A stretch of 64,000 nt of DNA from Candidatus Latescibacterota bacterium (GTDB taxonomy: Bacteria; Latescibacterota; UBA2968; GCA-2709665), in NCBI GenBank assembly GCA_965226795.1, contig CBDDDZ010000005.1, forward strand, positions 2,912,001 through 2,976,000, read 5' to 3'. The notes under the pieces were generated by a model. That model saw nothing but the letters and a program-made list of their open reading frames with translations, searched no databases and was not told where the DNA came from. Of the stretch, positions 14,780 to 30,772 are shown piece by piece. Within the stretch, counting starts at the first letter, position 1; each line of letters opens with the position of its first letter. Made by a program: the position numbers and the translations under genes.

Positions 14780-15862
14780 TTATTTGCGTCCGTATTGCAG
14801 GATGAAGTCTTCCACCATTTCCCGGGCCTCTTCGTCGCTGAACTGCTCGGGCGGGGTCTTCATAAAGTAGGACGAGGGGCCCGGCAACGGCCCCTTCAGG
14901 CCGTGCTCGAGGCCCAGCTTGCAGCAACGAACGGCGTCGATAACCACGCCGGCGGAGTTGGGCGAGTCCCAGACTTCCAGCTTCAGTTCCAGGTTGAGCG
15001 GCACACCGCCAAAGGTTTCGCCCTCCATCCGGATGTGGCACCATTTCCTGTCTTCCAGCCACGGCACATGATCGCTCGGGCCGACGTGTACATTCTTCTC
15101 TCCCAGGTCGTAGTCCAGCTGGGAGGTAACGGCGTTGGTTTTGCTGATCTTTTTGGATTCGAGCCGGGAACGTTCCAGCATGTTGTAGAAGTCGGTATTC
15201 CCGCCAAAGTTCAGCTGGTACGTGCGCGTAAGCTTGACACCTCGTTCACGGAAGAGCCGGGTGAGTACCCGGTGGACGATGGTGGCGCCAACCTGTGATT
15301 TGATATCGTCTCCGATGATGGGAAGGCCGTGCTTTTCAAAGCGTTCGGGCCAATGACCCGCGCTCGCAATAAAGACGGGCACGCAGTTGACAAAACCACA
15401 ACCGGCCTGAAGAACCTGCTCGACGTACCACTTCGTGGCTTCTTCGCTGCCTACCGGGAGATAGTTGACAACCACGTCGGTTCCCGTGGCTTTCAGAACC
15501 TCCGCCACATCCACGGTACTGCCGTCCGCCTTCTTTATGACCTGGCTGAGATACCGGCCCAGGCCGTCGTGGGTCATGCCGCGCTGAACGGGCACGTCGA
15601 GGTGAGGAACATCCGAAAATTTGACGGTATTATTGGGGTCGGTGAAGATCGCCTCACTGAGGTCTTTGCCGACCTTGTTCCTGTCGATGTCGAACGCGGC
15701 GGAGAATTCGATGTCGCTGACGTGATACCCGCCCAGATCGGGATGCATCAGGCCGGGTATGAAGCTGTCTTTCTTAACATCTCTATAATATTGGACGCCC
15801 TGTACGAGAGACGATGCGCAGTTGCCGACGCCGACGATGGCAACCCGGACTTTTCTGACCAT
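14780..15862 (-). CDS. ino1: myo-Inositol-1-phosphate synthase
   Basis: [67 protein letters not shown]. Confidence 0.96.
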
Positions 15863-16133: not shown

Positions 16134-17057
16134 ATGAACCTGCAGCACCTGAAATATTTCCTGGCCGTGGCCCGCGCAAACAGCTTCAGCAGGGCCGCGC
16201 GAGAACTGCACGTGACACAGCCCACCGTCAGCACCGGGGTGGCGGACCTGGAGCGCGCGCTGGGGATCCGCCTTTTCAACCGGGGCAGCCGCCACGTGGG
16301 CCTGACAATGGAGGGTAGAACGCTGGTGAATTACGGCATGCAGATCCAGGATCTGGTTGAATCGACTGAAGATCGGCTGAAGCGCCGCGACGTCCTCCCG
16401 GGCGAAGGATTTCAGTTCGGGGCGATCGACGCCGCCGTGACCTACCTGCTGCCGGAAATCCTGAAGGCATATATGCGGGATTGTCCGGATGTAGCGCTTT
16501 CCGTACAGGTGGCGCCTTCCAGGTACCTGGTTGAGGATCTGCTTATGAACCGTTCTGAATTCGCCGTAATTTCGCTTCCGTTCACCCATCCGAAATTGAA
16601 AACGGTTTCCATTTATGGAGATTCCATGCCCCTGGTCGCGGGGGCGTCGCATCGGTTTTCCCGGCGTCCCTCCGTTGGCCTGCAGGAAGTCGCTGAGGAA
16701 CCCCTTATCCTGTTTCACGCCGATTCCGTGTCACGAAAAATCGTAGACGAACGGTTCGCGGAGGCCGGTGTGTCCCCCGGCGTGGTTATGGAAATGCGAA
16801 GCCCCGAGGCCATGCGGAAACTGGTTGAGGTAGGCGTGGGAATTTCTTTCCTGCCACACCTGGCCGTGCGGGACTCTCTGACGTCGGGAGCGCTGGTGAC
16901 CGTACCGGTGAAGGGAGTACAATTCAGCCGCGAAATCGGCGTGGCGTGGCGCGAGGGACGCTATTTCGGCCCTGCCATCCGGCACCTGCTGGACGCCATT
17001 TATGAACGGTTCGGGATAGCAGTGGGCGGGAGGCACGGCGACCAGACGGATGTCTAA
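16134..17057 (+). CDS. LysR-family transcriptional regulator
   Basis: MNLQHLKYFLAVA..SFSRAARELHVTQPTVS..LE..LG..LFNR HTH plus substrate-binding domain. Confidence 0.95.
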   Translation: MNLQHLKYFLAVARANSFSRAARELHVTQPTVSTGVADLERALGIRLFNRGSRHVGLTMEGRTLVNYGMQIQDLVESTEDRLKRRDVLPGEGFQFGAIDAAVTYLLPEILKAYMRDCPDVALSVQVAPSRYLVEDLLMNRSEFAVISLPFTHPKLKTVSIYGDSMPLVAGASHRFSRRPSVGLQEVAEEPLILFHADSVSRKIVDERFAEAGVSPGVVMEMRSPEAMRKLVEVGVGISFLPHLAVRDSLTSGALVTVPVKGVQFSREIGVAWREGRYFGPAIRHLLDAIYERFGIAVGGRHGDQTDV

Positions 17058-18226
17058 ATCTTTACTGTAATGACGTCCGTCGCCTTCAGTGCCTGTTCAA
17101 TCAGCGGGGAGAGTTCGAGTTTCGGTTCGATCGCATGAACCGTCTTCAGATCGGCGCGGGTCTCCGGATGTTTGGGCACAAAGACCGTGCAACAATCTTC
17201 ATAGGGCTCGATCGAGATATCGTAGGTCCCGATGCGCCGGGCGAGATCGATAATTTCCTCTTTGTTGTCGCCGCATAGTGGGCGCAGAAGGGGCAGCGGT
17301 GTCACTTCCTCGATGGCGCGCATGTTGGACAGGGTTTGCGAGGCGACCTGACCGATACTCTCGCCCGTAACGAGGGCCTGTGCGCCTTCTCGCTCGGCAA
17401 TGGTTTCGGCGATGCGCAACATCGCTCTGCGATAGAAAATCACCCGGTAACCGGGCGGCGCATGGGTCATCACGCGGCGCTGGATTTCAACGAACGGGAC
17501 CAGATACAGCGTCGATTGGTACTGGTACCGTGTCAGCACGCGGACGAGTTCCTCGGTATTGCGCTGGGAGCTTCGGTTGGTATACGGCTGGCTGTGAAAG
17601 TGTACGAATGAGAGCCGCACGCCGCGTTTCATCGTCTTGTATGAAGCAACCGGCGAGTCGATTCCGGAGGACAGCAGACTGACGGCACGCTCGTTGGCGC
17701 CGACGGGCAGACCGCCGGGCCCGGGTGTTTTCCCGGTGTAGATGAAGGTGCCCTGGTACGAAATTTCGATGAAACAGGTCAGGTCCGGGTCATCCAGCTT
17801 GACCCTTGCCCTGGAGAGGGTCTGGACATGGGCTCCGACGTCGCGGTTGATCTCCTCAGACGTGAGCGGGAAGTTCTTGTCGCCGCGACGGGCTGCAATC
17901 CTGAAAGAGCCGAATTCCACGTTCCGGACGACGTCCCACGCCTCCGCCCGTATGCGTTCGATGGAGTTGGGCACGCGAACGGCTTCGGAGAAATTCGCAA
18001 TCCCGAACACGCCGGCCAGGCGTTCCCGGATGGGTCCAAGATGTGCGTCCGGTGCGAGTTCCAGGGTAATGCGACCGGAAAGACGGCGGGCGGCGCCGTG
18101 TGGCAGGCCTTTCAACGCACGTGCGATATTTGTGAGCAGTTGCTGTTCGAACCGGCCGCGGTTCCTCCCCTTCAGGCCGATTTCGTGGTAGTGGATGAGG
18201 ACAACCCGTTCGGGCACGGCGTCCAT
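17054..18226 (-). CDS. thiI: tRNA 4-thiouridine synthase
   Basis: HYHEIGLKGRNR, THUMP domain, GGLPVG, LLSSGIDSPVA, TGESIGQVASQTL, EDCC. Confidence 0.95.
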   Translation of the reverse strand: MDAVPERVVLIHYHEIGLKGRNRGRFEQQLLTNIARALKGLPHGAARRLSGRITLELAPDAHLGPIRERLAGVFGIANFSEAVRVPNSIERIRAEAWDVVRNVEFGSFRIAARRGDKNFPLTSEEINRDVGAHVQTLSRARVKLDDPDLTCFIEISYQGTFIYTGKTPGPGGLPVGANERAVSLLSSGIDSPVASYKTMKRGVRLSFVHFHSQPYTNRSSQRNTEELVRVLTRYQYQSTLYLVPFVEIQRRVMTHAPPGYRVIFYRRAMLRIAETIAEREGAQALVTGESIGQVASQTLSNMRAIEEVTPLPLLRPLCGDNKEEIIDLARRIGTYDISIEPYEDCCTVFVPKHPETRADLKTVHAIEPKLELSPLIEQALKATDVITVKI

Positions 18227-19414: not shown

Positions 19415-19840
19415 CTATTCAGCCACCCAAACCCGTCTCAGCGGGACATCGGGAGATTGGCAGACGCCGCCGTAGATTGTCACGGCGGTTATTTTGTCGT
19501 TCCGAAACCGGCACAGGTGCACTTCGGTCGCTTCCAGACGTTTGCCATACAGCGCTTCGGGCAGTCCGGGAAGGGGCTGGTTTACAATGCCCTTATGGCG
19601 AAACTCCACAGCGACCATGTCGCCGCCGGCGATGACGTTGAGAATCTCGAGCCGCAGGTCTCGCTCTTCCTCGTGGCAGCCCCGCCAGAGCGCCACCATG
19701 TTATCCGCGCCGCGGATGTCCAGTCCGCCGCCAACCATGGTCGCGCCGTCGTCGTAGGTTTCCCGAAGGCGGTTCCAGTCCGAGGCAAATGCGGCTTCGA
19801 GGGACTCCCTGGCAATACGCGCGTTTTTCCTTGATGACAT
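19415..19840 (-). CDS. SnoaL/NTF2-like (ester cyclase) protein
   Basis: DLRLEILNVIAGGDMVAVEF...GKRLE...CRFRNDKI pattern. Confidence 0.75.
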   Translation of the reverse strand: MSSRKNARIARESLEAAFASDWNRLRETYDDGATMVGGGLDIRGADNMVALWRGCHEEERDLRLEILNVIAGGDMVAVEFRHKGIVNQPLPGLPEALYGKRLEATEVHLCRFRNDKITAVTIYGGVCQSPDVPLRRVWVAE

Positions 19841-19878
19841 TGGGAACACCTCCGGAATTTCAAATCCACGTTTTATTG

Positions 19879-20667
19879 CTATTCAACGCTGGCGTCGGCC
19901 CGGTACTGTTCGAGATTTCCTCTGTATTCCAGGCCGAGTATTTCCCGGGACCGTGCGACGTTGCAGGTTCTGTCGGCCCCCGGCGTACCCACAATGTGGA
20001 AAATGTCGAAGTCGATGGACTGGGATTCCAGGCTCAGCCGGCAGGCCTCCGCAAGGTCGTGGCGGCACACCCATCCCTGGCGGTAGGGACGCTCATCCGT
20101 ACCCAGTTTTTCCCTGTACCGACCGATGCCGAGTCGGCTGTCAACAATGTAGTCCGGCCGAAGCACGATAATGCGGAGACCGAACGCGTCGTGGTACTGC
20201 CGGCACATTTCTTCCTGAAGGCGTTTGGTGACACCGTAAAGGCCGCCGTCGGGCCGCCTGACGTCGGCCGTGAAAAAGATGCCTTTTGGATGGGCGGTCT
20301 GACAGGAGCCGAGATGCACGATCCTCCCGATGCCGTGCCGCCGGGCAGATTCGAGTACGTTCCAGAGGCCCTTGATATTGATAAGGAAGGGTTTCACGTC
20401 GTCTACCCCGTGGGCGCCGGGAGCGTCCGAGTGGTACACGGCCATGTGCAGAACCGCGTCCATACCCTCCATGGCCCGGTGTACGGCTTCAAAATCCACG
20501 ATATCTCCGTGTACGATGTCACCGCCCGCCCATTCACCGTCGGTGTCTTGCCACGCGCGCCACGCCTGCGGACCGAAATCGAAAGCGCGGATCCGATGGT
20601 TTTCGTCCAAAGCGGCCAACGCGGCCCGTCCGAGCCAGCCGGCCGCGCCGAATACGACAATATTCAT
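19879..20667 (-). CDS. NAD-dependent epimerase/dehydratase (uronate-dehydrogenase-like SDR)
   Basis: GAAGWLG, HGDI.D, YGVTK motif. Confidence 0.85.
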   Translation of the reverse strand: MNIVVFGAAGWLGRAALAALDENHRIRAFDFGPQAWRAWQDTDGEWAGGDIVHGDIVDFEAVHRAMEGMDAVLHMAVYHSDAPGAHGVDDVKPFLINIKGLWNVLESARRHGIGRIVHLGSCQTAHPKGIFFTADVRRPDGGLYGVTKRLQEEMCRQYHDAFGLRIIVLRPDYIVDSRLGIGRYREKLGTDERPYRQGWVCRHDLAEACRLSLESQSIDFDIFHIVGTPGADRTCNVARSREILGLEYRGNLEQYRADASVE

Positions 20668-20697: not shown

Positions 20698-22104
20698 TCA
20701 GAACCTCTCTTTGGCAAGTCCGTACTTCCGGTAAAAATGACGAAACTGATCGTAGCTCAGACTCAGCGATTCGGCCGCCTTGCGCTGGTTCCAGTCTGCG
20801 CGGTTCAGCGCGCTCCTGAGCAGCCCGAGTTCAAAGGCCGTGACCTGAGCGTCGAAACCGTCTCCCGGCGGCGCCGGAGCCCCGCTGGAGATTTCGGGCG
20901 GCAGATCGCAGGGTTCGATGGATGCGCCCGTGGCCATGCAGGCGGCACGTTCGGCGGCGAATTTGAGCTCGCGCACGTTTCCGGGCCACGGGTACCCCAA
21001 CAGGAGGCGGAGGGCGCGTTCCGAAAACGGACGGACCACGAGTCCGGGCACCTCCCGGACGATCTGTTCAACAAAATACAGGGCAAGTGGCTGGATGTCT
21101 TCATTCCGTTCGCGGAGTGGAGGAATGCGAATGATTTCAAAGCGGAGGCGGTCGTAGAGATCCTGACGAAAACGGCCTTCCATGATCTCTCGTTCAAGAT
21201 CGGCATTCGTGGCGGCAATGATCCGGACGTCCACCGTGGTGGGCGTGGCCCCGCCCACGCGTTGAATTTCCTGGTACTCGATGGCGCGCAGGATGTTCTG
21301 CTGGAATTCCGGGGTGGTGTTGCCAATTTCGTCCAATAACAGGGTACCGCCGTTGGCCGCTTCAAACCGGCCGGGGCGGGCTTCCGTGGCTCCGGTAAAG
21401 GCGCCCTTTTCGTGGCCGAAGAGTTCGCTTTCGAGCAAATTGGCGGAGAGGGCGGCGCAGTTGACTTTAACGAAGGGACGATCTCTGCGTACCCCGCCGT
21501 AATGAATCGCGGCGGCCACGAGTTCCTTCCCGGTACCGGGTTCGCCGAGGACCAGTACCGGTCGCGGGATGGAGGCGATGCGCCCGGCCTGCTGCATAAT
21601 CCGCAGCATCTGCGGGCTGGCGTTGACCGTCCTGTATTTTTTCCCGAATTCGTCCCGGTAGTAGCGATTCTCCCGGTCCAGATTCTTTACCTGGGCTTGC
21701 AGCCGGGCATTCTCCCTCAGGACGGCGAGTACGCGGTCGAGTTTTTCCAGGCTGAGTTCAAGCCGGTCCTCAATATAGAAATCTTTTTCGATGAAGTCGG
21801 AGGCGCCCATCCGCAGGGCCGCTACGGCGTTCTCCACGGTGCCCTTGCCCGTGAGGATGATAACCGGCAGATCGGGTACGAGGTGGCGAATTTGCCGGAG
21901 GACTTCCAGACCGTCCGGCTCGGCCGGACCGAAGTCGATATCCAGAATGGCCATGTCAACGACCGAAACGTGCTCTCGCAGGTATGCAAAGGCCTTTCTT
22001 CCCGTCGGGAAAGCCCTCACGATCCGGCCATCCACCTGGAGGCTTCGCGTGAGCATGCCCAGTATTTCGGGCTGGTCATCGGCGATAACGATTTGAGCAT
22101 TCAT
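20698..22104 (-). CDS. Sigma54-dependent response regulator (REC + PspF-like AAA+ + Fis-type HTH)
   Basis: REC with [55 protein letters not shown]-terminal LSYDQFR. Confidence 0.92.
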
Positions 22105-22107
22105 GGG

Positions 22108-23736
22108 TTACTCAAGGAATTCTTCGGCCAGGGGCAGCCGCGCGGCCGATATCGGATCGCCGCTCCAGCCGATACTTTCCGTACCGGAGACGAGTTCGAA
22201 GTCCACCGGAAGATCGATGCGGAACACGGCGCCTGCGCCCGGGCGGCTGATCATGCGCAGGCTTCCTCTGTGGGCGGACACAATGCGGGAACAGATGCTG
22301 AGGCCGAAGCCATTGCCCTTTTCCTTGGTGGAAAACCCTGGATCGAAGATTCTGGACTGGATCTCTTCGGAAATGCCGGGTCCATTGTCTTCCACTTCAA
22401 TGAAAACCGACGCCCGCTTATTGTCGTAGCCGGCCTGTACTGTGACCGCTCCGTCTTCATCTACGGCGTCCAGTGCGTTGAGAATCAGGTTGGTGACGGC
22501 TTCTCGCAGCATGCCGGGATCGACCTTGACCTGGGGAACCTGGGGCTCAGATACGTAGCGGAGCGCCGCGCCGCCGGTTCGGGTCGAGACGGCTTCTTTG
22601 ATTTTCCCCACCAGTTGCGGAATATCCACCAAAGAGGGATTCAACGGATCCTGTTTCATGCTGCGCAGGTAGGCCACCCATTGGTCGTAGATGTGTTCCT
22701 GGTCGCGGGCGAGATTTCTCAGGTCGGCGAGAACAGTGTCTTCCGGCGGCGCCCTTCGAATGAGCCGGCGCGTACGGCTCCCTACCAGACCCATCAGGTT
22801 CTTGATCTGGTGACCCCGCGTATACAGGCTCTCTCCCACCTGCACGCGACCCAGGTCGATGAGCTCGAGGGATAAACGCGACAGGACCGAGGCTGCTTTG
22901 CCGCCGAATTCTTCAATGATGGATGTGTACTCCTGTTCCATCTGAGCCGAACTTCTGTGATCGAAAAGAAGGTTCGCCAGGTTTCTGTAGGGTAGCGCAT
23001 AGTCCGGCTCGAGCTGGATCGCTATCTTGAATGCGCCCAGAGCCTGGAGGGTCTGACCCGTCTGCATGAGCAGAACGCCAAGGTTGTTGTGGCCCGGGGC
23101 GAACAGCGGATTCGCTTCCAGCCCGCGACGGTAGACCATGATGGCTTCATCGATGTTTTCCGGAAGGTCGTCCAGAAAGCTGGCGAGCAGGAAGCAGGCG
23201 CCGTCCACATTGGCGAAGGGCACGCCCCGGTCCACGGCCCCGAGAATATAGCGAAGCGCTTCAACCGCCTGTTGCCGGCCATTCGACCCCGATTCCGCAC
23301 CTTCGGCCTGCAAAATCGCCAATTGAAACTGCGCCTCCAGATGGTCCGGATCACGTTCGGTGGCGGCTTTAAAGGCCTTGAGAGCTCCTCCGGCGCCCCC
23401 TTTGAGCCGGCAGAGTCCCATCTTGTAAAACAGGTCCGCACCGTGATCCGGCGCAAGATCGAGGCAGCGCGTAAAGCAGGTCAGTGCGTTCCGCCAGTTG
23501 CCTTGCCTGCAGTACACAACACCCAGATTGTGGCGTGCTCGAATATTCTGAGTATCGGTGGACAATGCCGCCCGGTAGGCGGCTTCGGCCATTTCCAGCC
23601 TGCCTGTTTCCAGCGCAGCGTCCCCTTCCCGACAGTGTCGGCGCGCAGTGGGGTTTCCGGATTCAGGCAGGGCGTACGCGATAGCGATGCGCTCGGCGGG
23701 AGCAGGCGCGTTGTCGGTCACGGTTGGATTATGCAA
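22108..23736 (-). CDS. Soluble TPR-repeat sensor histidine kinase
   Basis: N-terminal TPRs; H-box GHQIKN, NLILNALDA, EDNGPGI, FDPGFSTK, GNGFGL; no TM segment or signal peptide seen. Confidence 0.9.
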   Translation of the reverse strand: MHNPTVTDNAPAPAERIAIAYALPESGNPTARRHCREGDAALETGRLEMAEAAYRAALSTDTQNIRARHNLGVVYCRQGNWRNALTCFTRCLDLAPDHGADLFYKMGLCRLKGGAGGALKAFKAATERDPDHLEAQFQLAILQAEGAESGSNGRQQAVEALRYILGAVDRGVPFANVDGACFLLASFLDDLPENIDEAIMVYRRGLEANPLFAPGHNNLGVLLMQTGQTLQALGAFKIAIQLEPDYALPYRNLANLLFDHRSSAQMEQEYTSIIEEFGGKAASVLSRLSLELIDLGRVQVGESLYTRGHQIKNLMGLVGSRTRRLIRRAPPEDTVLADLRNLARDQEHIYDQWVAYLRSMKQDPLNPSLVDIPQLVGKIKEAVSTRTGGAALRYVSEPQVPQVKVDPGMLREAVTNLILNALDAVDEDGAVTVQAGYDNKRASVFIEVEDNGPGISEEIQSRIFDPGFSTKEKGNGFGLSICSRIVSAHRGSLRMISRPGAGAVFRIDLPVDFELVSGTESIGWSGDPISAARLPLAEEFLE

Positions 23737-23761
23737 TCGGAGACTCCTGGTTGAAGCCGAT

Positions 23762-25276
23762 CTATTCCGAAGATGTCTTCGGTCTTTCCGAAGGGTCGCC
23801 TGTCGGATTGTTCTCGCCTGTCATTCTACCCAGGAATTCCGGTAGTTCGAGGCCCGCCAGTTTTGCCAATTCATGCATCGGCGGAATGGCGCCCATCAGG
23901 CGCTGGCCGAGATTGGACATACCTCCCTGTCCGTTGCCGCCGTCCCAGACCACGATTTTATCAAGGGGCAGATTCTTTATGGCTTCGGCCTGGATGCCTG
24001 CGACCTCGGTCAGCCGTTCCACGATGAGGAAGGCTGCGGCGGCCTGGTCGTTTCCTCCGCATGCCGCCATCAACTCCTTGTAGCCCTCCGCCTTGGCCTC
24101 CAGGATGGCCTGAGTGCCCTCGGCTTCGGCTCGCTTCTGTGCCAAAATGGCAGCAGCCTTCCCCTGCGCCACAAGTGTCCTCTGCTCCTTCTCGGCCTGT
24201 GCCTGTACCACCAGCTTTTGCTTTTGCGCATCGGCCTGTACGACGATTTCCGCTCTCAGTCGAGCTTCTTCGCGCAGCGCGCGGGCATCCTCGGCATCTT
24301 TTTCCGCACGTTCCTGGGCAACCCGTATAGCGCCGTCCGCAGCCTTCGCGGCCTCCTGCCCCTTCTGCCGGGCGATCTCTTCGGCCACTTTCTGCTGCGC
24401 CATATAGCCGGCCTTTTTGGATTCGGCCTCGGCCTCCGCATGGACCGCTTCCGCATCCAGAGAAGAGACCATCTGGCGTCTGTTTCTTGCGGCCTCGGTC
24501 TCGCCGATTTCGGCTTCGGATTCGAGAGCGGCAACCCTTTGGCGCCGGTCCCTGGCGGCTTCGGCCTCGCCGATTTCGGCGGCCGCGTTCGCAGCAGCCA
24601 CGTCCGTGCGCTGGTCCCGTTCCCGTTCCGCCACCCCCACCTTGCCCATTTTCTCCTGCTCGGCCACGTCGACGGTCGCCTGGTTGATAGCTTCGGCCGC
24701 GGCCTTTTGCCCGAGAGCCTTGATATAACCGCTTTCGTCTTCAATATCCTTGATGTTCACGTTAATCACGGCCAGGCCGATTTTCTCCATTTCGGTGGAG
24801 ACTGCTTCATTGACCTTGAACATAAAAGCCTGCCGGTCCCGGTTGATTTCTTCGATTTCCATAGTGGCTATCACCGCCCGCATCTGACCGAGGATGATGT
24901 CCTGCGCCTGACTCTGGATCTGTTCGCGAGAAAGACCCAGGAGACGAACTGCCGCATTTTGCATCACGCCCGCCTGATTTGACACCGCCGCGGTGACGGT
25001 TGTCGGAACGGACACACGGATGTTCTCCTGCGAAAGGGCGTTGTCCAGGTCTATGGGAACGACAAACGGCTCCAGGTCCAGATACTCATAGTCCTGCAGG
25101 AGCGGAAGAACGAAGGCAGCGCCCCCGTGAATGCATTTCGCCGCCCCCTGTCCGGTCTTGCCGTAGACGACCAGTATTTTGTTGGATGGACACCGCCTGT
25201 ACCTGGAAATAAACGTCACGAAGAGCAGAAATACCACTAACAGCATTATAATTGTCAGTATCGTCTCAGTTGCCAT
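23762..25276 (-). CDS. Flotillin / SPFH-domain protein
   Basis: N-terminal TM, RYRRCPSNKILVVYG, GGAAFVLP, GQMRAVIATMEIEEINRDR, AEA-rich coiled coil; GGAGG RBS. Confidence 0.93.
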   Translation of the reverse strand: MATETILTIIMLLVVFLLFVTFISRYRRCPSNKILVVYGKTGQGAAKCIHGGAAFVLPLLQDYEYLDLEPFVVPIDLDNALSQENIRVSVPTTVTAAVSNQAGVMQNAAVRLLGLSREQIQSQAQDIILGQMRAVIATMEIEEINRDRQAFMFKVNEAVSTEMEKIGLAVINVNIKDIEDESGYIKALGQKAAAEAINQATVDVAEQEKMGKVGVAERERDQRTDVAAANAAAEIGEAEAARDRRQRVAALESEAEIGETEAARNRRQMVSSLDAEAVHAEAEAESKKAGYMAQQKVAEEIARQKGQEAAKAADGAIRVAQERAEKDAEDARALREEARLRAEIVVQADAQKQKLVVQAQAEKEQRTLVAQGKAAAILAQKRAEAEGTQAILEAKAEGYKELMAACGGNDQAAAAFLIVERLTEVAGIQAEAIKNLPLDKIVVWDGGNGQGGMSNLGQRLMGAIPPMHELAKLAGLELPEFLGRMTGENNPTGDPSERPKTSSE

Positions 25277-25430
25277 TGCTAATCCCTCCTCCATTGGATA
25301 TTTTCAACTTTGATTGAGATCTATCCCGGAGCGAATCCGGTGCGGGTTGAAACCCCTACCTGTCTCATCCATCGGCGCAATCAGACAGTTGGGAAATCCA
25401 GGAAACATAGACATTTAAAACAAAATCCAC

Positions 25431-26039
25431 TCAGGACACCAACGGCTCGACCTCAAGCGTGGTTGGATCGAGCACACGTAGAATGCGGACCGGCGTATTG
25501 GCCGAGATGGGCATGCCATTTTTTCCGCGGGCAGATACGTAGGCGACGGTTCCGCTCTCCATCACCCGGACCTGTCCGGTGCCGCCTTCCAGGATATCCA
25601 GATATACCTCGCCCGACGTACCAACGCATGTATCCAGGCTGGCGTTTCCAGTCTCTGTAAGCTGCCGGATTCCGTGGAAAAAATAGGCCACAACCGCCAT
25701 GCCTGCACTGCCCCAGACAAGCGCGTAAAGTAGGGCGGTCTGAATATCCAACCCTCTCTCGAGATACAGGGCGCCCGCCCACCCGAACAGCATGCCAAAG
25801 GCGATCAGGCACCTGACAGATAGCAGTTTGAAAGAAGCAACCGTACCGTTTTCCAGTCCGTCGTTAAATTCCGGGCCGGCGTCGCCGAGGTTTGTGTCTC
25901 CAGAAACGCCTGCATCCGAACTGTCTCCAAGACCAAGTACAACCACCAGGAGTTGCCAGACGAAAAACGCACTGAAAAAAATCGCCACGATGTAGAAAAT
26001 CTGGTTGAGCGTGGTCAGATCCGTCCACCAGGCATCCAT
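25431..26039 (-). CDS. Short NfeD-like membrane protein (flotillin partner)
   Basis: Three TM segments plus OB-fold pattern VGTSGEVYLDI..GGTGQVRV...LEVEP; directly upstream of flotillin. Confidence 0.8.
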   Translation of the reverse strand: MDAWWTDLTTLNQIFYIVAIFFSAFFVWQLLVVVLGLGDSSDAGVSGDTNLGDAGPEFNDGLENGTVASFKLLSVRCLIAFGMLFGWAGALYLERGLDIQTALLYALVWGSAGMAVVAYFFHGIRQLTETGNASLDTCVGTSGEVYLDILEGGTGQVRVMESGTVAYVSARGKNGMPISANTPVRILRVLDPTTLEVEPLVS

Positions 26040-26311
26040 ATTTCGTTCCCTTCGCCGGGTCGCTGGGTCTCTGACATCGAATACGTAAAAATGTGCAGGA
26101 TTTCAGAGGTTCTGGGGCCAGTAACGCACCCCTCAAGAATGTGACATAGAACGCCAACGGAGTCAACAATAAACCCAGTGGGTTTCCGGCGGCGTTTGCA
26201 GCTGCCGAATCCTCTGTTCCCGTCAAACCCCTCTGGCACGGGGAGGCGGCATCAATTACGACGATTTCCCGGCCCTGAAATCTGCTTGTCCGCGACCTGC
26301 GGCAAGCTGTC

Positions 26312-26887
26312 TCAGAAAGGGACCAACCCGTGCTTCCTGAATTCGCCCTTCAATTGATATCTTCCACGGTTGAGCCAGGTCTTGACCGTACCCATCGGAA
26401 GTTGCAACTCCCGTGTAATCTCCTCGTATGACCAGTCCCTGACATAACGCATCCAGACGACTTTGCGATACCTGGCCGGCAATGCGCGAATACTCTTCCT
26501 GACAAGCTCGCGGTGCTGGCTTCGCTGGGCCGAAATTTCCGGATTTTCGCCGGTAGCGGGCACGCGCGTGGCTTCTACAAGCGCCGCGGGGTCTTCGGTT
26601 ACTTTTATCCACCGCCGGCGCACCTGTTGTTTGCGGTAGTGGGATTTATGTACGTTCAGCGCGATTTGCGTAAGCCAGGTGGCAAACGCGGCCTCTCCCC
26701 GATAGGAGCCCAGGGCGGTATATGCCCTCAAAAAGGCGGTTTGCACCAGATCCTGTGCGGTTTCAGGATCGCTGGTTCTACGCATCATCGTGGCGTAGAT
26801 CTGTTCATGGCAGGCCTTGTAGAGAACACCGAAGGCAGCGGCGTCACCTTCGATTGCCCTCCGGACCAGATGCCGTTCGTTTTCCAT
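26312..26887 (-). CDS. ECF RNA polymerase sigma factor
   Basis: GDAAAF, AQDLVQTAFLRAY, FATWLTQIALN, SYEEI..LQLPMGTVKTWLNRGR. Confidence 0.93.
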   Translation of the reverse strand: MENERHLVRRAIEGDAAAFGVLYKACHEQIYATMMRRTSDPETAQDLVQTAFLRAYTALGSYRGEAAFATWLTQIALNVHKSHYRKQQVRRRWIKVTEDPAALVEATRVPATGENPEISAQRSQHRELVRKSIRALPARYRKVVWMRYVRDWSYEEITRELQLPMGTVKTWLNRGRYQLKGEFRKHGLVPF

Positions 26888-26918
26888 TAATAGGATATCC
26901 TCTCGAAAGGATGGTCAT

Positions 26919-27095
26919 TTACCTGGAGTCACTCGAAAGCAGTCGATAACCCACGTAAATCAGGACGAACGAAACCAGCAGTTTCAGGAGCAAAAACAGG
27001 ACTTCCAGGGACACGCCGATCAGCTTGATCGCTTCGAAAATACCGAAGTATGCGCCGATGGCGATAAGGATGATGCCGAGGATTTTCGCGAGCAT
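26919..27095 (-). CDS. 58-aa two-TM membrane protein (below the ORF-track cutoff)
   Basis: MLAKILGIILIAIGAYFGIFEAIKLIGVSLEVLFLLLKLLVSFVLIYVGYRLLSSDSR-stop, preceded by an AAAGGA RBS. Confidence 0.75.
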   Translation of the reverse strand: MLAKILGIILIAIGAYFGIFEAIKLIGVSLEVLFLLLKLLVSFVLIYVGYRLLSSDSR

Positions 27096-27253
27096 TGCTC
27101 TGTCCTTTCTCTCTTGCGGTGTTGTATTGAATGAAGGTCCCGGACCAGGTTCGAACGCGAGTCACGGAGGGCTTCGAGATCGTTCAGGCGCTGGTCCACG
27201 GTGTCCAGCCGCGTGTCGAGAATCAAGCGAAGGATTTCCCACGCAGTGAAGTC

Positions 27254-27628
27254 TCAAGCCACCTTTTTAACATTTCCGTGGTCTGCGTCCGGCGTAAGGG
27301 TTCCCACGTCTGCTGTTTTGAAAATACCGGACAGTCTCGTCGTTCTCAGAATCCTCTCGAGCCGCCCGGAAACGCCGCTCAGCTTCAGGTCGCCTCCCGC
27401 GTCTCTAATGGACGTCAGACCCCTGATCAACTCCCCCAGCATGGCGGCGCCGACACGGTTCGCCTTTGAAAGGTCCACCACCACCATGCCAGCGCCTCGC
27501 TTGACAAGTCTGGCAATTCTGCGCCGAAACGGCGCACCTTCCGACTCGGCGATGAGGTCGCCACCTACGGTGACAATGACCACACCATCCCGAGTGCTTT
27601 CGCTGAGGTGAAGACGATTTGCGTACAT
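27254..27628 (-). CDS. STAS-domain protein (anti-sigma-factor antagonist-like)
   Basis: VIVTVGGDL, VVVDLS, GGDLKLSG, ILRTTRLSGIF. Confidence 0.85.
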   Translation of the reverse strand: MYANRLHLSESTRDGVVIVTVGGDLIAESEGAPFRRRIARLVKRGAGMVVVDLSKANRVGAAMLGELIRGLTSIRDAGGDLKLSGVSGRLERILRTTRLSGIFKTADVGTLTPDADHGNVKKVA

Positions 27629-27721
27629 GGTTCAATGCCCCGCGTTACTGTGTAGGTTTGATCTAGGTGCCGTTGCCCGAACCTGTTTCTCTTGGAGCCA
27701 AAGTGACCGCGCCGTCGCCGA

Positions 27722-27937
27722 TCATGAGGTCCCTCGCGAGCCCGGCCGATTCAGCTTTTCGTCGATCGCGATCATGATTTCCTGGATATCCGTCAGTCGC
27801 CGGTCGAGGTCGTCCAGCCGGGCATTCAGGCGCCCTTCGACCTTGCCGGGCAGGACGCCTTTGGTTTGTCGATCTACATATTTAAGGACCGCCGTCGCGA
27901 GAACAATTAGCGCAATGCCAACACCGAATTCAAACAT
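27722..27937 (-). CDS. Small single-TM coiled-coil protein (PspB-like topology)
   Basis: N-terminal TM then RLDDLDRRLTDIQEIMIAIDEKL; GGAGG RBS. Confidence 0.7.
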   Translation of the reverse strand: MFEFGVGIALIVLATAVLKYVDRQTKGVLPGKVEGRLNARLDDLDRRLTDIQEIMIAIDEKLNRPGSRGTS

Positions 27938-27963
27938 GACATCCCTCCATCAAATTCAAGATA

Positions 27964-28605
27964 TCAAAGGTCATCCACCGGTTTTGCCCGGTATTTCTCG
28001 GCCCCGCGTTCAATTTCAGGAAAGTGATAGACAACCAGACCGGACTCGGAAACGCGAACTTCGGTGCTGCCGCCGACGGCCAACGCGCCGAGGATCTCGG
28101 CGGCTCTTTCGACGGTCATCCTGCCGTCGGTAGCGGCCTCCAGAACGGTGAGGCTTCCGCCTTTCTCCCGTGCGAGTCTGAGCAACCGATGTTGGTATTG
28201 CGCGTACCGTTTGCGCTCGGCCGCCGTGTGGACCCTGCACCCGGCCAGCCAGAAGACCAGCGCGATGGCGACAACGACAAGCCCCATGCTGAAATCAAGC
28301 GCGTCGAGGCGGAAGCCGGACGGCTGGAAACCGGAGAAAACGGGCCCCATCAGGCCGCCGAGTCCAAACAGAATCGCTGTGGATTTTAGAACGAACGCGA
28401 GGGCGTATCGCATGGCGCAGCTCCCGTCAGTGGCCAGATCGGAGAATCGGAAAGACAGGCGACGCGATCGTGGGTGCCGAACCGTTCGCGGCTCTTGCCG
28501 CATGGGTCGGGTTTTCCGGACGTCGCGCCAGGCCTTTTTTGTGTCGCGCATCGCCTTTTCAATTTCGTAAGCGATTTCGTCCAGGATTTTTCGCAATTCA
28601 TGCAT
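27964..28605 (-). CDS. Two-TM membrane protein with C-terminal winged-helix-like domain
   Basis: Start overlaps the pspA stop; two hydrophobic helices; LLRLAREKGGSLTVLEAA..AAEIL..L..VSESGLVVYHFP. Confidence 0.7.
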   Translation of the reverse strand: MHELRKILDEIAYEIEKAMRDTKKAWRDVRKTRPMRQEPRTVRHPRSRRLSFRFSDLATDGSCAMRYALAFVLKSTAILFGLGGLMGPVFSGFQPSGFRLDALDFSMGLVVVAIALVFWLAGCRVHTAAERKRYAQYQHRLLRLAREKGGSLTVLEAATDGRMTVERAAEILGALAVGGSTEVRVSESGLVVYHFPEIERGAEKYRAKPVDDL

Positions 28606-29275
28606 CGGATTTGCGGAGTTTGTCTTTCAAAGCCTCAAGTTCCTCTTCCACGGTGTTCCGGCGTTCCAGTTTTTCGAACGAGCCTTCGAGCGAGGCATCC
28701 TCGCCTGCGATTTCGGCGTGAGCGGAAGCCTCGGCTTCTTCGTTTTCAACCCGGCTGCGAAAGCGTTCGAAGCTGGAAAATGCGTCGTCGCCGATGCCCG
28801 AAAGGCCCTGGGCGATCTGCTTTCGGGCCTGGGCGGCTCGGTGCCGCGCGATAAGGGCCACCTGGCGGGTGCGTGCTTCGTCCAGTTTGGACTTTAGCTG
28901 CGTCAGCTGTTTCTTGAGTTGGTCGGAGGTCTTGTGGCTTTCGTCGAAAGCGACTTCCAGGTCGCGGGCGGCCTTTTCGAGGGTGGCCTTTCGTTCCAGC
29001 GCGCGCCGGGCGAGGTCGTCCTCGCCGTTTTCCACGGCCAGTTCGGCCTTTTTCTGCCAGGCTTCGATCTGGTCCGTTTTTTCCAGAAATTGACGCTCCA
29101 GGCGTTTTTCGTTCGCAACGGCGGTCCCGACGGAAGCAGTCGCCTTGTTGACGGCGTCTTCCATTTCGAGAATCATCTGCCGAATCATCTTTTCCGGATC
29201 TTCGGCGCGATTCAGAATGTCGTTGATGTTGGCCTTGATAATGTCCGCCATTCTGGAGAAAATCCCCTTAGCCAT
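28598..29275 (-). CDS. pspA: PspA/IM30 (Vipp1/ESCRT-III superfamily) protein
   Basis: GIFSRMADIIKANIN..AEDPEKMIRQMILEME, GEDDLARRALERK, VEEELEALK. Confidence 0.95.
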   Translation of the reverse strand: MAKGIFSRMADIIKANINDILNRAEDPEKMIRQMILEMEDAVNKATASVGTAVANEKRLERQFLEKTDQIEAWQKKAELAVENGEDDLARRALERKATLEKAARDLEVAFDESHKTSDQLKKQLTQLKSKLDEARTRQVALIARHRAAQARKQIAQGLSGIGDDAFSSFERFRSRVENEEAEASAHAEIAGEDASLEGSFEKLERRNTVEEELEALKDKLRKSDA

Positions 29276-29368
29276 GGTCGTACTCCCTTCTAAGGTGGGC
29301 ATCTGGACCCCACCATGGTGGAATGATACAGTTTCCAGTTTCTATCCACGGTTCGGCCGATTACACGC

Positions 29369-29384
29369 TGCAAAGAACGTACCC
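29369..29384 (-). promoter_or_regulatory. Sigma54 (-24/-12) promoter of the pspA operon
   Basis: The minus strand reads GGGTACGTTCTTTGCA, i.e. GG-N10-GC with TTGCA, about 95 nt upstream of the pspA ATG. Confidence 0.7.
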
Positions 29385-29650
29385 GTATGACAAAAAAACC
29401 AGGCTGCTATTAAGTGCCAGTATTTATTAGATTTATCCCGTCCATCGAGACGGAGCTGCCAAAAGCTGTTGGTGAAAAACGCCATACATTAGGCGAAAAC
29501 AGCCGGATTGGGCCGGCGTTGTCCACTTGTTCCCGGGCGGAGCCGACTTGCCTTTTTCGGACAAATGGCGTAATATCAGAGGTGCTCTCTCAGGAGGGCA
29601 TAACGGGTGCGGACACCGATCTATGGGAGCTTCCGAGTAGAACGAAAATT

Positions 29651-30772
29651 ATGGAATACTATCGACATTTGCGCCTGCTGTGCGCTGTACTCTGCCTGGT
29701 CATGTTGCTCGCAAGCCCCCTTTCCGGACTCTCGATGGTTTACAAGGTTCGGAAGGGCGACTCTCTGTATTCCATTGCCCGGCAGTTCGATACAAGCGTC
29801 CGGGAGATCAAGCGAATCAACAAGCTACGCACAAATAACCTCTATCCGGGGCAGGTGCTGCGGCTGGGTCCACGGATTGTCAAATATGACGCGCAGAACG
29901 GTCCGTACTACTGGCGAAAGCCAAAGGCGTCCAGGCAAAAGCACCGGAACTATTCGGAGGCCGCGCGTTCCGCCCCGAGTCTGGACTATCGGCGCGCTCA
30001 GATCCTGTTGCGCGCCTTTGACAACGAGATTCTCTCCCGGGCCCCCGGGAAGAGACGGCAGCCGCTCAAAGGCTGGCGGATTGTGCTCGACCCGGGGCAC
30101 GGGGGGATCGATCCGGGAGCGATCGTTTCCAATACCACGGGCGAGAACAGGCGGGTTTACGTCGTCGAAGATGAATATGTATACGATATTGCACTGCGAA
30201 TGTACAGGAAACTTCGACTTCTGGGCGCGGAGGTGGCATTGACGGTGATCAGTCCCAATCATCTGATTCGGGATAACGAGGTGGCCAAGGTTACATTCGT
30301 CCACGAAAAGAACGAAGTCTATAACGATGAACGGTACAACCGGAGAAATTCGGATCGGGTGCGACCCAGGAGCGCCAATCTTTCGCAGCGCGTTCGAGTT
30401 GCGAACCGCTTCTTCAAAAGAGCGCGCAGGGGCAGGAGCCTGTTTGTCTCACTGCACGCGGACAACAACCCAGGACGGTCCGAGGGACCGCTGGCGATCC
30501 ATCTGAAACGGCGGGGCAAGGTAGACAGCCGTTCCAGAACGTTCGCACGCATCATGCGTTCAGCCCTGAACCAGCCCGATTTGCCCGCGAAGGTTCAGGG
30601 ACGGAACCTCTGGGTCTTGCGAAACAACCTGGCCCACGCCGAGATTCTGGTTGAGATTCACAACGTCCACGACAAAAACGACGCCTATCGGATTCGGCAT
30701 CATAAGGACAGGGAGCGGAACGCGCAGCGGCTCGTTAACGGAATCCTTACGTATGCGAAGAAGCGCCGATGA
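29651..30772 (+). CDS. LysM-domain N-acetylmuramoyl-L-alanine amidase (Amidase_3)
   Basis: Signal peptide, YKVRKGDSLYSIARQF LysM, IVLDPGHGGIDPGA, FVSLHAD, ILVE. Confidence 0.9.
   Translation: MEYYRHLRLLCAVLCLVMLLASPLSGLSMVYKVRKGDSLYSIARQFDTSVREIKRINKLRTNNLYPGQVLRLGPRIVKYDAQNGPYYWRKPKASRQKHRNYSEAARSAPSLDYRRAQILLRAFDNEILSRAPGKRRQPLKGWRIVLDPGHGGIDPGAIVSNTTGENRRVYVVEDEYVYDIALRMYRKLRLLGAEVALTVISPNHLIRDNEVAKVTFVHEKNEVYNDERYNRRNSDRVRPRSANLSQRVRVANRFFKRARRGRSLFVSLHADNNPGRSEGPLAIHLKRRGKVDSRSRTFARIMRSALNQPDLPAKVQGRNLWVLRNNLAHAEILVEIHNVHDKNDAYRIRHHKDRERNAQRLVNGILTYAKKRR

Follow-up and report, generated by a model that had tools for sequence, protein, structure and literature searches.

Organization of the locus

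The subject of this study is a gene cluster around pspA, a gene of the phage shock protein (Psp) response, that lies in a stretch of 64,000 nucleotides from a Candidatus Latescibacterota bacterium (assembly GCA_965226795.1, contig CBDDDZ010000005.1, positions 2,912,001 to 2,976,000 of the forward strand), in the following referred to as the window. The Psp response is a textbook partner-switch, in which PspA holds the transcriptional activator PspF. According to the listing of open reading frames (ORFs) of the window, ten co-oriented ORFs occupy positions 20698-29275 of the minus strand, the strand on which all features below are located unless stated otherwise. A preliminary description of the window had proposed ten genes behind a σ54 promoter; all ORFs are present and their labels hold in Pfam and NCBIfam searches of the window proteins, which also provided the domain labels used here. 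The host genome (5.4 Mb, 95.9% complete) carries rpoN and three pspA genes. PspC, which had not been recognizable in the window, has no match (PF04024) anywhere in this genome either.

The cluster starts with pspA (28598-29275, 225 residues; PspA_IM30, E 1e-48), which is followed by a gene for a protein of 213 residues with two transmembrane (TM) helices and a C-terminal winged helix (27964-28605; no Pfam family), a gene for a PspB-like protein of 71 residues (27722-27937), i.e. one TM helix and a conserved cytoplasmic helix (RLxELERRLTDIQDVMIxIDEK), and, further downstream, a gene for a two-helix membrane hairpin of 58 residues (26919-27095). The last two genes encode a soluble histidine kinase of 542 residues (22108-23736), which combines TPR repeats with a HATPase_c domain, and an activator of 468 residues (20698-22104), composed of REC, Sigma54_activat and HTH_8 domains. 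Located between these are genes for a STAS protein (27254-27628, 124 residues; E 1.5e-10), an extracytoplasmic function (ECF) σ factor with r2 and r4 domains (26312-26887, 191 residues; no adjoining anti-σ gene), an NfeD/YuaF-like protein with three TM helices (25431-26039, 202 residues; weak Pfam match, E 0.079) and, directly after the latter, a FloT-like Band_7 protein, i.e. a flotillin (23762-25276, 504 residues). Contigs of three RNA runs are one base shorter at position 25280, close before the ATG of flotillin at 25276, and this start is thereby favoured over an upstream one.

Conservation of the gene cluster

The kinase is encoded in 98 of the 168 genomes of the phylum, in a single copy each and only in three families, f1 (21/22, own genome included), f2 (28/31) and f4 (49/76), and kinase identity among close relatives is 78-86%. 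Of the 97 further genomes encoding the kinase, 53 were examined at the locus, 13 of them from the search for relatives and 40 as regions chosen for genus spread, and genes were counted with profiles built from these loci, leaving out two partial, non-orthologous matches (L014, L015). A core order, running from the σ54 promoter through pspA and the genes for the winged-helix protein, the PspB-like protein and the hairpin to the TPR kinase and a receiver-fused PspF relative, is kept in 51 of the 53 loci across the three Latescibacterota families, the remaining two being cut by contig ends. The activator gene directly follows the kinase gene in 52/53 loci, pspA and the winged-helix gene are found upstream of the kinase gene in 51/53 (contig ends account for the misses), PspB-like genes, one or more, occur in 47/53 and the hairpin gene in 45/53.

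The core of the system consists of pspA, the winged-helix protein, the PspB-like proteins, the hairpin, the kinase and the activator; the ECF σ factor, the NfeD-flotillin pair and the STAS protein are lineage-specific add-ons. The ECF gene occurs in all 33 loci of the host's order and in none of the 20 f4 loci, nor, genome-wide, in any of the 76 f4 genomes. The NfeD-flotillin pair is patchy (23/33 order loci, 0/20 f4 loci); judged by coordinates, kinase and flotillin are neighbours in 39 of the 98 kinase genomes, flotillin is missing from 59, and within the order all 39 flotillins of this orthologue group adjoin the kinase. STAS genes are restricted to the own genus (12/13 loci vs. 0/40 others), and a 45% identical paralogue is found elsewhere in the genome. 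A function of the STAS protein as core anti-anti-σ factor was rejected, as it is genus-specific and lacks the usual phosphorylated serine motif, and so was the idea that the 58-residue protein is an anti-σ factor, as it is present without the ECF σ factor in f4 and at a second pspA (see below). The preliminary description depended on conservation of the cluster, which is borne out, the conserved core being smaller than the cluster described, and had seen in it a merger with the SigW/flotillin logic of Bacillus, which, given the distribution of the ECF, NfeD-flotillin and STAS genes, is not a property of the core.

PspB-like genes vary in number (0-5 paralogues per locus in relatives). The window has lost one paralogue, still present in relatives, of which the 3' end remains at 27176-27220. 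More generally, the region from the winged-helix gene to the ECF gene is a variable slot that may contain a DUF2807/Toastrack protein, a fusion of a TM2 domain to the PspB-like helix, or repeat proteins without Pfam family (e.g. L012:5356-6561 and L048:8382-8741; also L051, L052 and L065). At one locus (L068, genome G105) the activator gene is immediately followed by a second pspA.

A receiver-fused relative of PspF

The best NCBIfam model of the activator is that of PspF (TIGR02974), with a score of 342.3 bits that is below the cut-off of 443.55. Among the 11 bacterial enhancer-binding proteins (bEBPs) of the genome the activator is the best match of E. coli PspF, the relation being reciprocal, and it has a PspF-type C-terminal helix-turn-helix (HTH). 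In a tree of AAA+ domains it belongs to a clade of 49 rows (support 100/100) that includes 12 classical PspFs, the one of E. coli among them; this tree comprised 88 of 145 rows, as tandem-AAA hits, fragments and two thirds of the generic outgroups had been dropped. The 12 classical PspFs form a sub-clade, the base of the PspF clade being poorly resolved, and monophyly of the non-classical members was not rejected in an approximately unbiased test (p 0.508, 53 rows), so that the tree gives no evidence of classical PspF having arisen within receiver-bearing lineages.

The receiver signature DD/D/T/K and the GAF(Y)TGA motif (GAFTGA in the window) are kept in 52/52 Latescibacterota activators, and the earlier assignment to a REC-PspF type is borne out by these intact catalytic residues and by the position in the PspF clade. 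Trp56 is found in none of the 52, which have polar or small residues at this position (Arg in the window), and, within the YLW patch, Tyr51 is largely retained. In the clade as a whole Trp56 is present in 12/12 classical PspFs and in 0/37 other members. The W56 loop is described as the main PspA-binding site of PspF in the accessible sections of PMC3791423, and the W56A exchange in E. coli PspF abolished PspA binding according to excerpts of PMC6003685. Other activators of the PspF clade (P0374-P0401) have degenerate receivers, and two of these sequences (P0397, P0398) have neither receiver nor Trp56.

Promoter and enhancer sites

The σ54 promoter upstream of pspA (29369-29384) matches 10 of 12 consensus positions of the -24/-12 element. 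A site of at least 9/12 precedes pspA in 51/51 upstream regions of at least 134 bases, and 159 of 3000 random 300-mers reach this value. Additionally, two PspF-type enhancer sites are located in front of the promoter: the proximal one (29470-29484), 100 bases before the -24 box, is the palindrome TGGYG-N5-CRCCA and matches 10/10 positions, and the distal one (29491-29505) matches 7/10. After removal of two short upstream regions, the best site scores 9-10/10 in 50/50 loci (60/1500 shuffles), and a tandem pair, 19-23 bases apart and scoring at least 16/20, is kept in 47/50 loci (21/1500 shuffles), the sites mostly lying 90-125 bases before the -24 box. The psp region of E. coli contains two 15-mers of the pattern TRGYG-N5-CRCYA, located 100 and 80 bases upstream of the -24 box, which we take to be the PspF binding sites (upstream activating sequences). 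The preliminary description depended on the activator driving the pspA promoter, a link that passed in silico, as PspF-type enhancer sites stand before this promoter.

Independent evidence for the enhancers comes from the distant families and from matrices whose training set was 36 loci from outside the genus. These matrices rank two pspA promoters of the host genome first (window) and second (contig C2) among 3088 candidates; they replaced a loose genome scan requiring GC at -12, which had given 27 sites without a ranking and had overlooked the second pspA. The second pspA (G000:C2:563900-565000, L167) is 43% identical, retains promoter and enhancer pair in 21/21 genomes, is accompanied by a 62-residue homologue of the 58-residue hairpin and lacks the residues predicted to contact the kinase (see below), with Asp at position 51 and Gly at position 55. 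It is likely that this unlinked gene is a second target of the activator. The third pspA (G000:C3:229000-231700) has no σ54 or enhancer sites and is found in a different context, with, by eye, a CesT/Tir-like gene upstream and a YdjG-like gene downstream.

Within the cluster a candidate σ70-like promoter (26138-26166, TTGAC-17-CACATT, 8/12) follows the ECF gene. Sites of at least 8/12 occur at this position in 23/34 loci as compared to 110/1500 random sequences, and in only 3/20 in f4; a consensus scanner left the internal site unlisted, below its threshold, and gave no terminator signal above chance. Judging from these sites, the genes for NfeD, flotillin, kinase and activator may have a basal expression of their own, and while the σ54 site itself stands as described earlier, a part of the ten genes may be independent of it. 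Inspection by eye revealed no conserved ECF-type promoter before nfeD-flotillin; the σ70-like site is found there instead.

Divergently to pspA, on the plus strand, lies a gene for a LysM protein with N-acetylmuramoyl-L-alanine amidase domain (29414-30772), the likely start of which is near 29650, so that the enhancer is positioned in the shared gap and could regulate the amidase gene as well. This gene is kept in 29 of the 33 order loci, the rest being cut short, and is absent in f4. In two studies the RNA contigs are interrupted within the gap between the divergent promoters (29343-29570 and 29390-29452, respectively), a weak hint at most. On the other side of the cluster, genes for an NAD-dependent epimerase and a SnoaL protein (19415-20667, minus strand) follow the activator gene after 30 bases, with synteny at genus level only, and, by eye, myo-inositol-1-phosphate synthase-like and ThiI-like genes are found at 14780-15862 and 17054-18226 (both minus strand).

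The TPR histidine kinase and its predicted contact with PspA

The kinase has no TM helix (maximum hydropathy 1.18). Its N-terminal TPRs are variable, and a conserved TPR core (residues ~130-290) runs into the helix carrying the phosphoacceptor His309. The protein exhibits the features of class I histidine kinases, i.e. the H-box His, N, G1, F and G2 boxes and a DHp-CA fold; His309 and the ATP boxes are kept in the window and in 40/40 loci. All catalytic residues are retained in both kinase and receiver, in line with the phosphorelay that had been proposed for them. On a remote branch of the family of TPR kinases (P0099-P0104, P0114) Thr or Ser replaces the phospho-His, i.e. these proteins are possible pseudokinases.

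Complex prediction for two copies of kinase residues 128-515 and PspA residues 1-155 resulted in a model score of 0.69, the best of three controls scoring 0.00; runs agreed in at least 92% of the contacts and the partner pLDDT was at least 84. The score mark applied is reached by 116/157 solved and 2/215 mismatched pairs, counts that are only approximate for this job. In the model, PspA helices 41-62 and 109-123 are predicted to pack against TPR residues 203-244 and 272-280 of the kinase, the predicted interface including Thr51, Asn55 and Gln119 of PspA and Gly234, Lys237 and Glu276 of the kinase. We know of no solved complex of this PspA-kinase kind. From the model we consider it probable that PspA acts on the kinase, and we presume by analogy that the contact would be inhibitory, as in E. 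coli the PspA coiled coil inhibits PspF.

Membrane proteins of the core

The 213-residue protein, modelled with a pLDDT of 78, combines two hydrophobic helices with a winged helix predicted at residues 133-200. Foldseek searches with this protein gave no match at E 0.001. Structural comparison of the winged helix with ESCRT-II proteins, Vps22 among them, yielded Z 9.9 for 3cuq_A (rmsd 4.5, 75 residues aligned) and Z 9.8 for 1w7p_A (rmsd 2.3, 69 residues aligned), values tied with those of ArsR and Z-alpha folds, and an ESCRT-II-like role is thus only a lead from modelling. Winged helices near pspA are on record in the accessible part of PMC11188069.

The PspB-like family has varied membrane parts and one common C-terminal helix, one copy being fused to a TM2 domain. 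Comparison with E. coli PspB gave an hhalign probability of 7.8, none of 23 members matches PF06667, and an Atlas lead of 0.79 refers to a cluster of which PspB makes up 14%. The 58-residue hairpin shows weak LiaF-TM matches in 4/19 cases (best E 0.035). The labels PspB-like and LiaI-like denote a resemblance of architecture.

A related arrangement in Kofleriaceae

A metagenome scan with five distant kinases, from which 80 of 182 loci were kept, revealed a second lineage, whose activators group with P0384, a sequence from a cluster with members named Kofleriaceae (Myxococcota). Here the order is kinase, activator, divergent pspA, a small ORF, another ECF gene and an anti-σ-like gene; in loci with enough room the activator gene is found in 53/55, pspA in 41/44 and the ECF gene in 27/30. 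None of the 80 loci contains winged-helix, PspB-like, hairpin or flotillin genes. As kinase, activator and pspA recur without the membrane genes, PspA is the only partner common to both lineages. The ECF σ factor of these loci scores ~100, as compared to 260-324 for orthologues, and has an anti-σ-like neighbour of its own.

Proposed mechanism and alternative explanations

We suggest that the soluble TPR kinase phosphorylates the receiver-fused PspF relative, which would then drive the σ54 pspA promoter from the PspF-type enhancer sites. Free PspA bound to the TPR core of the kinase would keep the system off. Upon membrane damage, lipids as well as the winged-helix, PspB-like and hairpin proteins may recruit PspA to the membrane, and the released kinase would finally cause induction of pspA, its membrane partners, the ECF σ factor and the second, unlinked pspA. 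It is very likely that the pspA promoter is under two-component control; the scheme as a whole, i.e. a kinase-controlled Psp operon with a phosphorylated PspF relative and PspA feedback on the TPR core of the kinase, we regard as probable.

Several observations weigh against this scheme. The degeneracy of the enhancer pattern was fixed after the site in the window had been seen, so that the window does not count as independent evidence, and contigs from four metatranscriptome runs cover the cluster and its neighbours evenly, which is uninformative, as DNA carry-over is possible. The complex prediction used its own alignments and a kinase dimer, unlike the calibration, and the model gives neither the affinity nor the sign of the contact, i.e. 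inhibiting or activating. Within Latescibacterota the interface is more conserved than the remainder (PspA 21/25 vs. 65/127, p 0.002; kinase 11/24 vs. 26/148, p 0.004), yet this is partly circular as the same alignments fed the prediction, and interface residues are shared between Latescibacterota and Kofleriaceae no more than others (PspA 9/25 vs. 45/127; kinase 6/24 vs. 46/148). In the Kofleriaceae-like loci no σ54 or enhancer site precedes pspA in 47/48 cases, the exception being one site in L107, nor is such a site found clearly upstream of 16 long loci. Moreover, in E. coli the C-terminus of PspA binds PspF at another, second site (available passages of PMC6003685), so that loss of Trp56 would still permit a direct PspA-activator contact.

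It is conceivable, but unlikely, that under the same two-component control the signal read by the kinase is the cytoplasmic PspB-like helix, or else the winged-helix protein, and that PspA is an effector only. TPR grooves commonly bind helical peptides, and the PspB-like family, with its variable copy number, its varied membrane parts, one of them a TM2 domain, and its single type of C-terminal helix, is what would be expected of several sensors with one output. However, 6/53 loci are without a detected PspB-like gene, kinase, activator and pspA are kept in the Kofleriaceae-like loci, none of which has PspB-like or winged-helix genes, and the PspA-kinase complex model passed. A control of the activator by both phosphorylation and direct inhibition by PspA via another surface, with the kinase sensing an unrelated cytoplasmic cue, would make use of the second PspA site on PspF and would be compatible with the largely kept Tyr51; this is very unlikely, as Trp56, the loss of which abolishes binding in E. 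coli (PMC6003685 and PMC3791423, both in excerpts), is replaced by polar or small residues in 52/52 activators and as the complex model places the very coiled coil of PspA that contacts PspF on the kinase instead.

The merged design of the preliminary description, in which a σ54-to-ECF cascade and flotillin microdomains as kinase scaffold are integral to the system, has only a slim chance of being correct. The ECF gene next to the kinase in 33/33 order loci, without anti-σ neighbour and with short gaps downstream of the σ54 promoter, the different ECF gene in 27/30 Kofleriaceae-like loci, the adjacency of kinase and flotillin in 39/39 cases within the order, and the precedent of a bEBP-to-ECF cascade, HrpRS-HrpL (PMC4145663, in part), all speak for it. 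Yet the f4 genomes lack the ECF gene (0/76), flotillin is absent from 59/98 kinase genomes, nfeD-flotillin follows the σ70-like site rather than a recognizable ECF-type promoter, and the low score and the anti-σ-like neighbour set the Kofleriaceae ECF σ factor apart. Finally, the kinase-activator pair might be an unrelated two-component system that merely lies beside pspA, and in part of the order the σ70-like site indeed lies between the pair and the genes upstream; as kinase, activator and pspA are adjacent in three families and, in different gene order, in a second phylum, and given the PspF clade membership and the enhancer sites at both pspA promoters, this is hardly credible.

Relation to known systems

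The presumably kinase-controlled Psp operon shares with the E. coli system (pspF divergent to pspABCDE, and pspG) PspA, a σ54 promoter, an activator of the PspF clade with the same HTH signature, single-pass proteins of PspB-like architecture, tandem enhancers of like pattern and spacing, and a small regulon of two promoters. It differs in the intact receiver on the activator, the absence of Trp56 and PspC, the TPR kinase in the operon, the downstream, co-oriented rather than divergent activator gene, the extra winged-helix membrane protein and in the feedback, which is predicted to run from PspA to the kinase. Like B. subtilis LiaFSR/liaIH it combines a pspA homologue with a two-component system in one locus and a small two-helix membrane protein beside pspA, but LiaS is a membrane kinase and LiaR a σ70 regulator of REC and HTH domains, whereas here a soluble TPR kinase and a σ54 AAA+ activator are found. 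As in the σW regulon of Bacillus (pspA, floT, floA), ECF, NfeD-like and flotillin genes are located near pspA; here, however, they are accessories, the loci contain no anti-σ gene, and the ECF σ factor of the window scores 106-117 bits with SigW models, below their cut-offs of 209-243. P. syringae HrpRS-HrpL may be a parallel as to a bEBP-controlled ECF σ factor without anti-σ factor, although activators and targets differ.

In print, as far as the accessible text of each paper goes, band-7 and NfeD proteins near pspA are described (PMC9239133, PMC11237479, PMC8144471), as is control by SigW and LiaRS in Bacillus (PMC8144471); the accessible main text of PMC9239133 does not mention Latescibacterota. 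The PspF variants listed in the available part of PMC11237479 are receiver-less or carry ACT/PAS domains, and the 12/12 HISKIN rows in its Table S3 are membrane kinases with REC and wHTH regulators. Sections of PMC3041696 take pspA-pspF as the ancestral core, and Desulfovibrio PspF is given as receiver-less in part of PMC4641369. Full-text literature searches turned up no publication in which a receiver-fused PspF is combined with a TPR kinase, and none pairing Latescibacter with phage shock.

Implications

Taken together, we regard the cluster as a real, class-wide variant of the Psp system, Psp-like in its working but outside the classical PspF circuit: the receiver has been gained or kept, Trp56 and PspC are absent, and a kinase has been added. 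One may tentatively go further and speculate that the kinase-controlled form is the ancestral Psp circuit, in which PspA, the bacterial ESCRT-III protein, switches off its own kinase, that the E. coli circuit is a branch that lost kinase and receiver and gained Trp56, the brake thereby moving to the activator, and that the winged-helix protein is an ESCRT-II-like anchor of PspA, although we consider this combination rather doubtful.

Since the enhancers conform to the pattern of E. coli, a pspF mutant of this species, together with the pspA reporters already available, can serve to rebuild the circuit. If true, the proposed scheme would be a third way of coupling the state of an ESCRT-III-family protein to transcription, and a histidine kinase that is read out by a coiled coil of ESCRT-III type would constitute a new type of sensor. 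Moreover, the scheme provides a route, open to testing, by which PspF may have become receiver-less.

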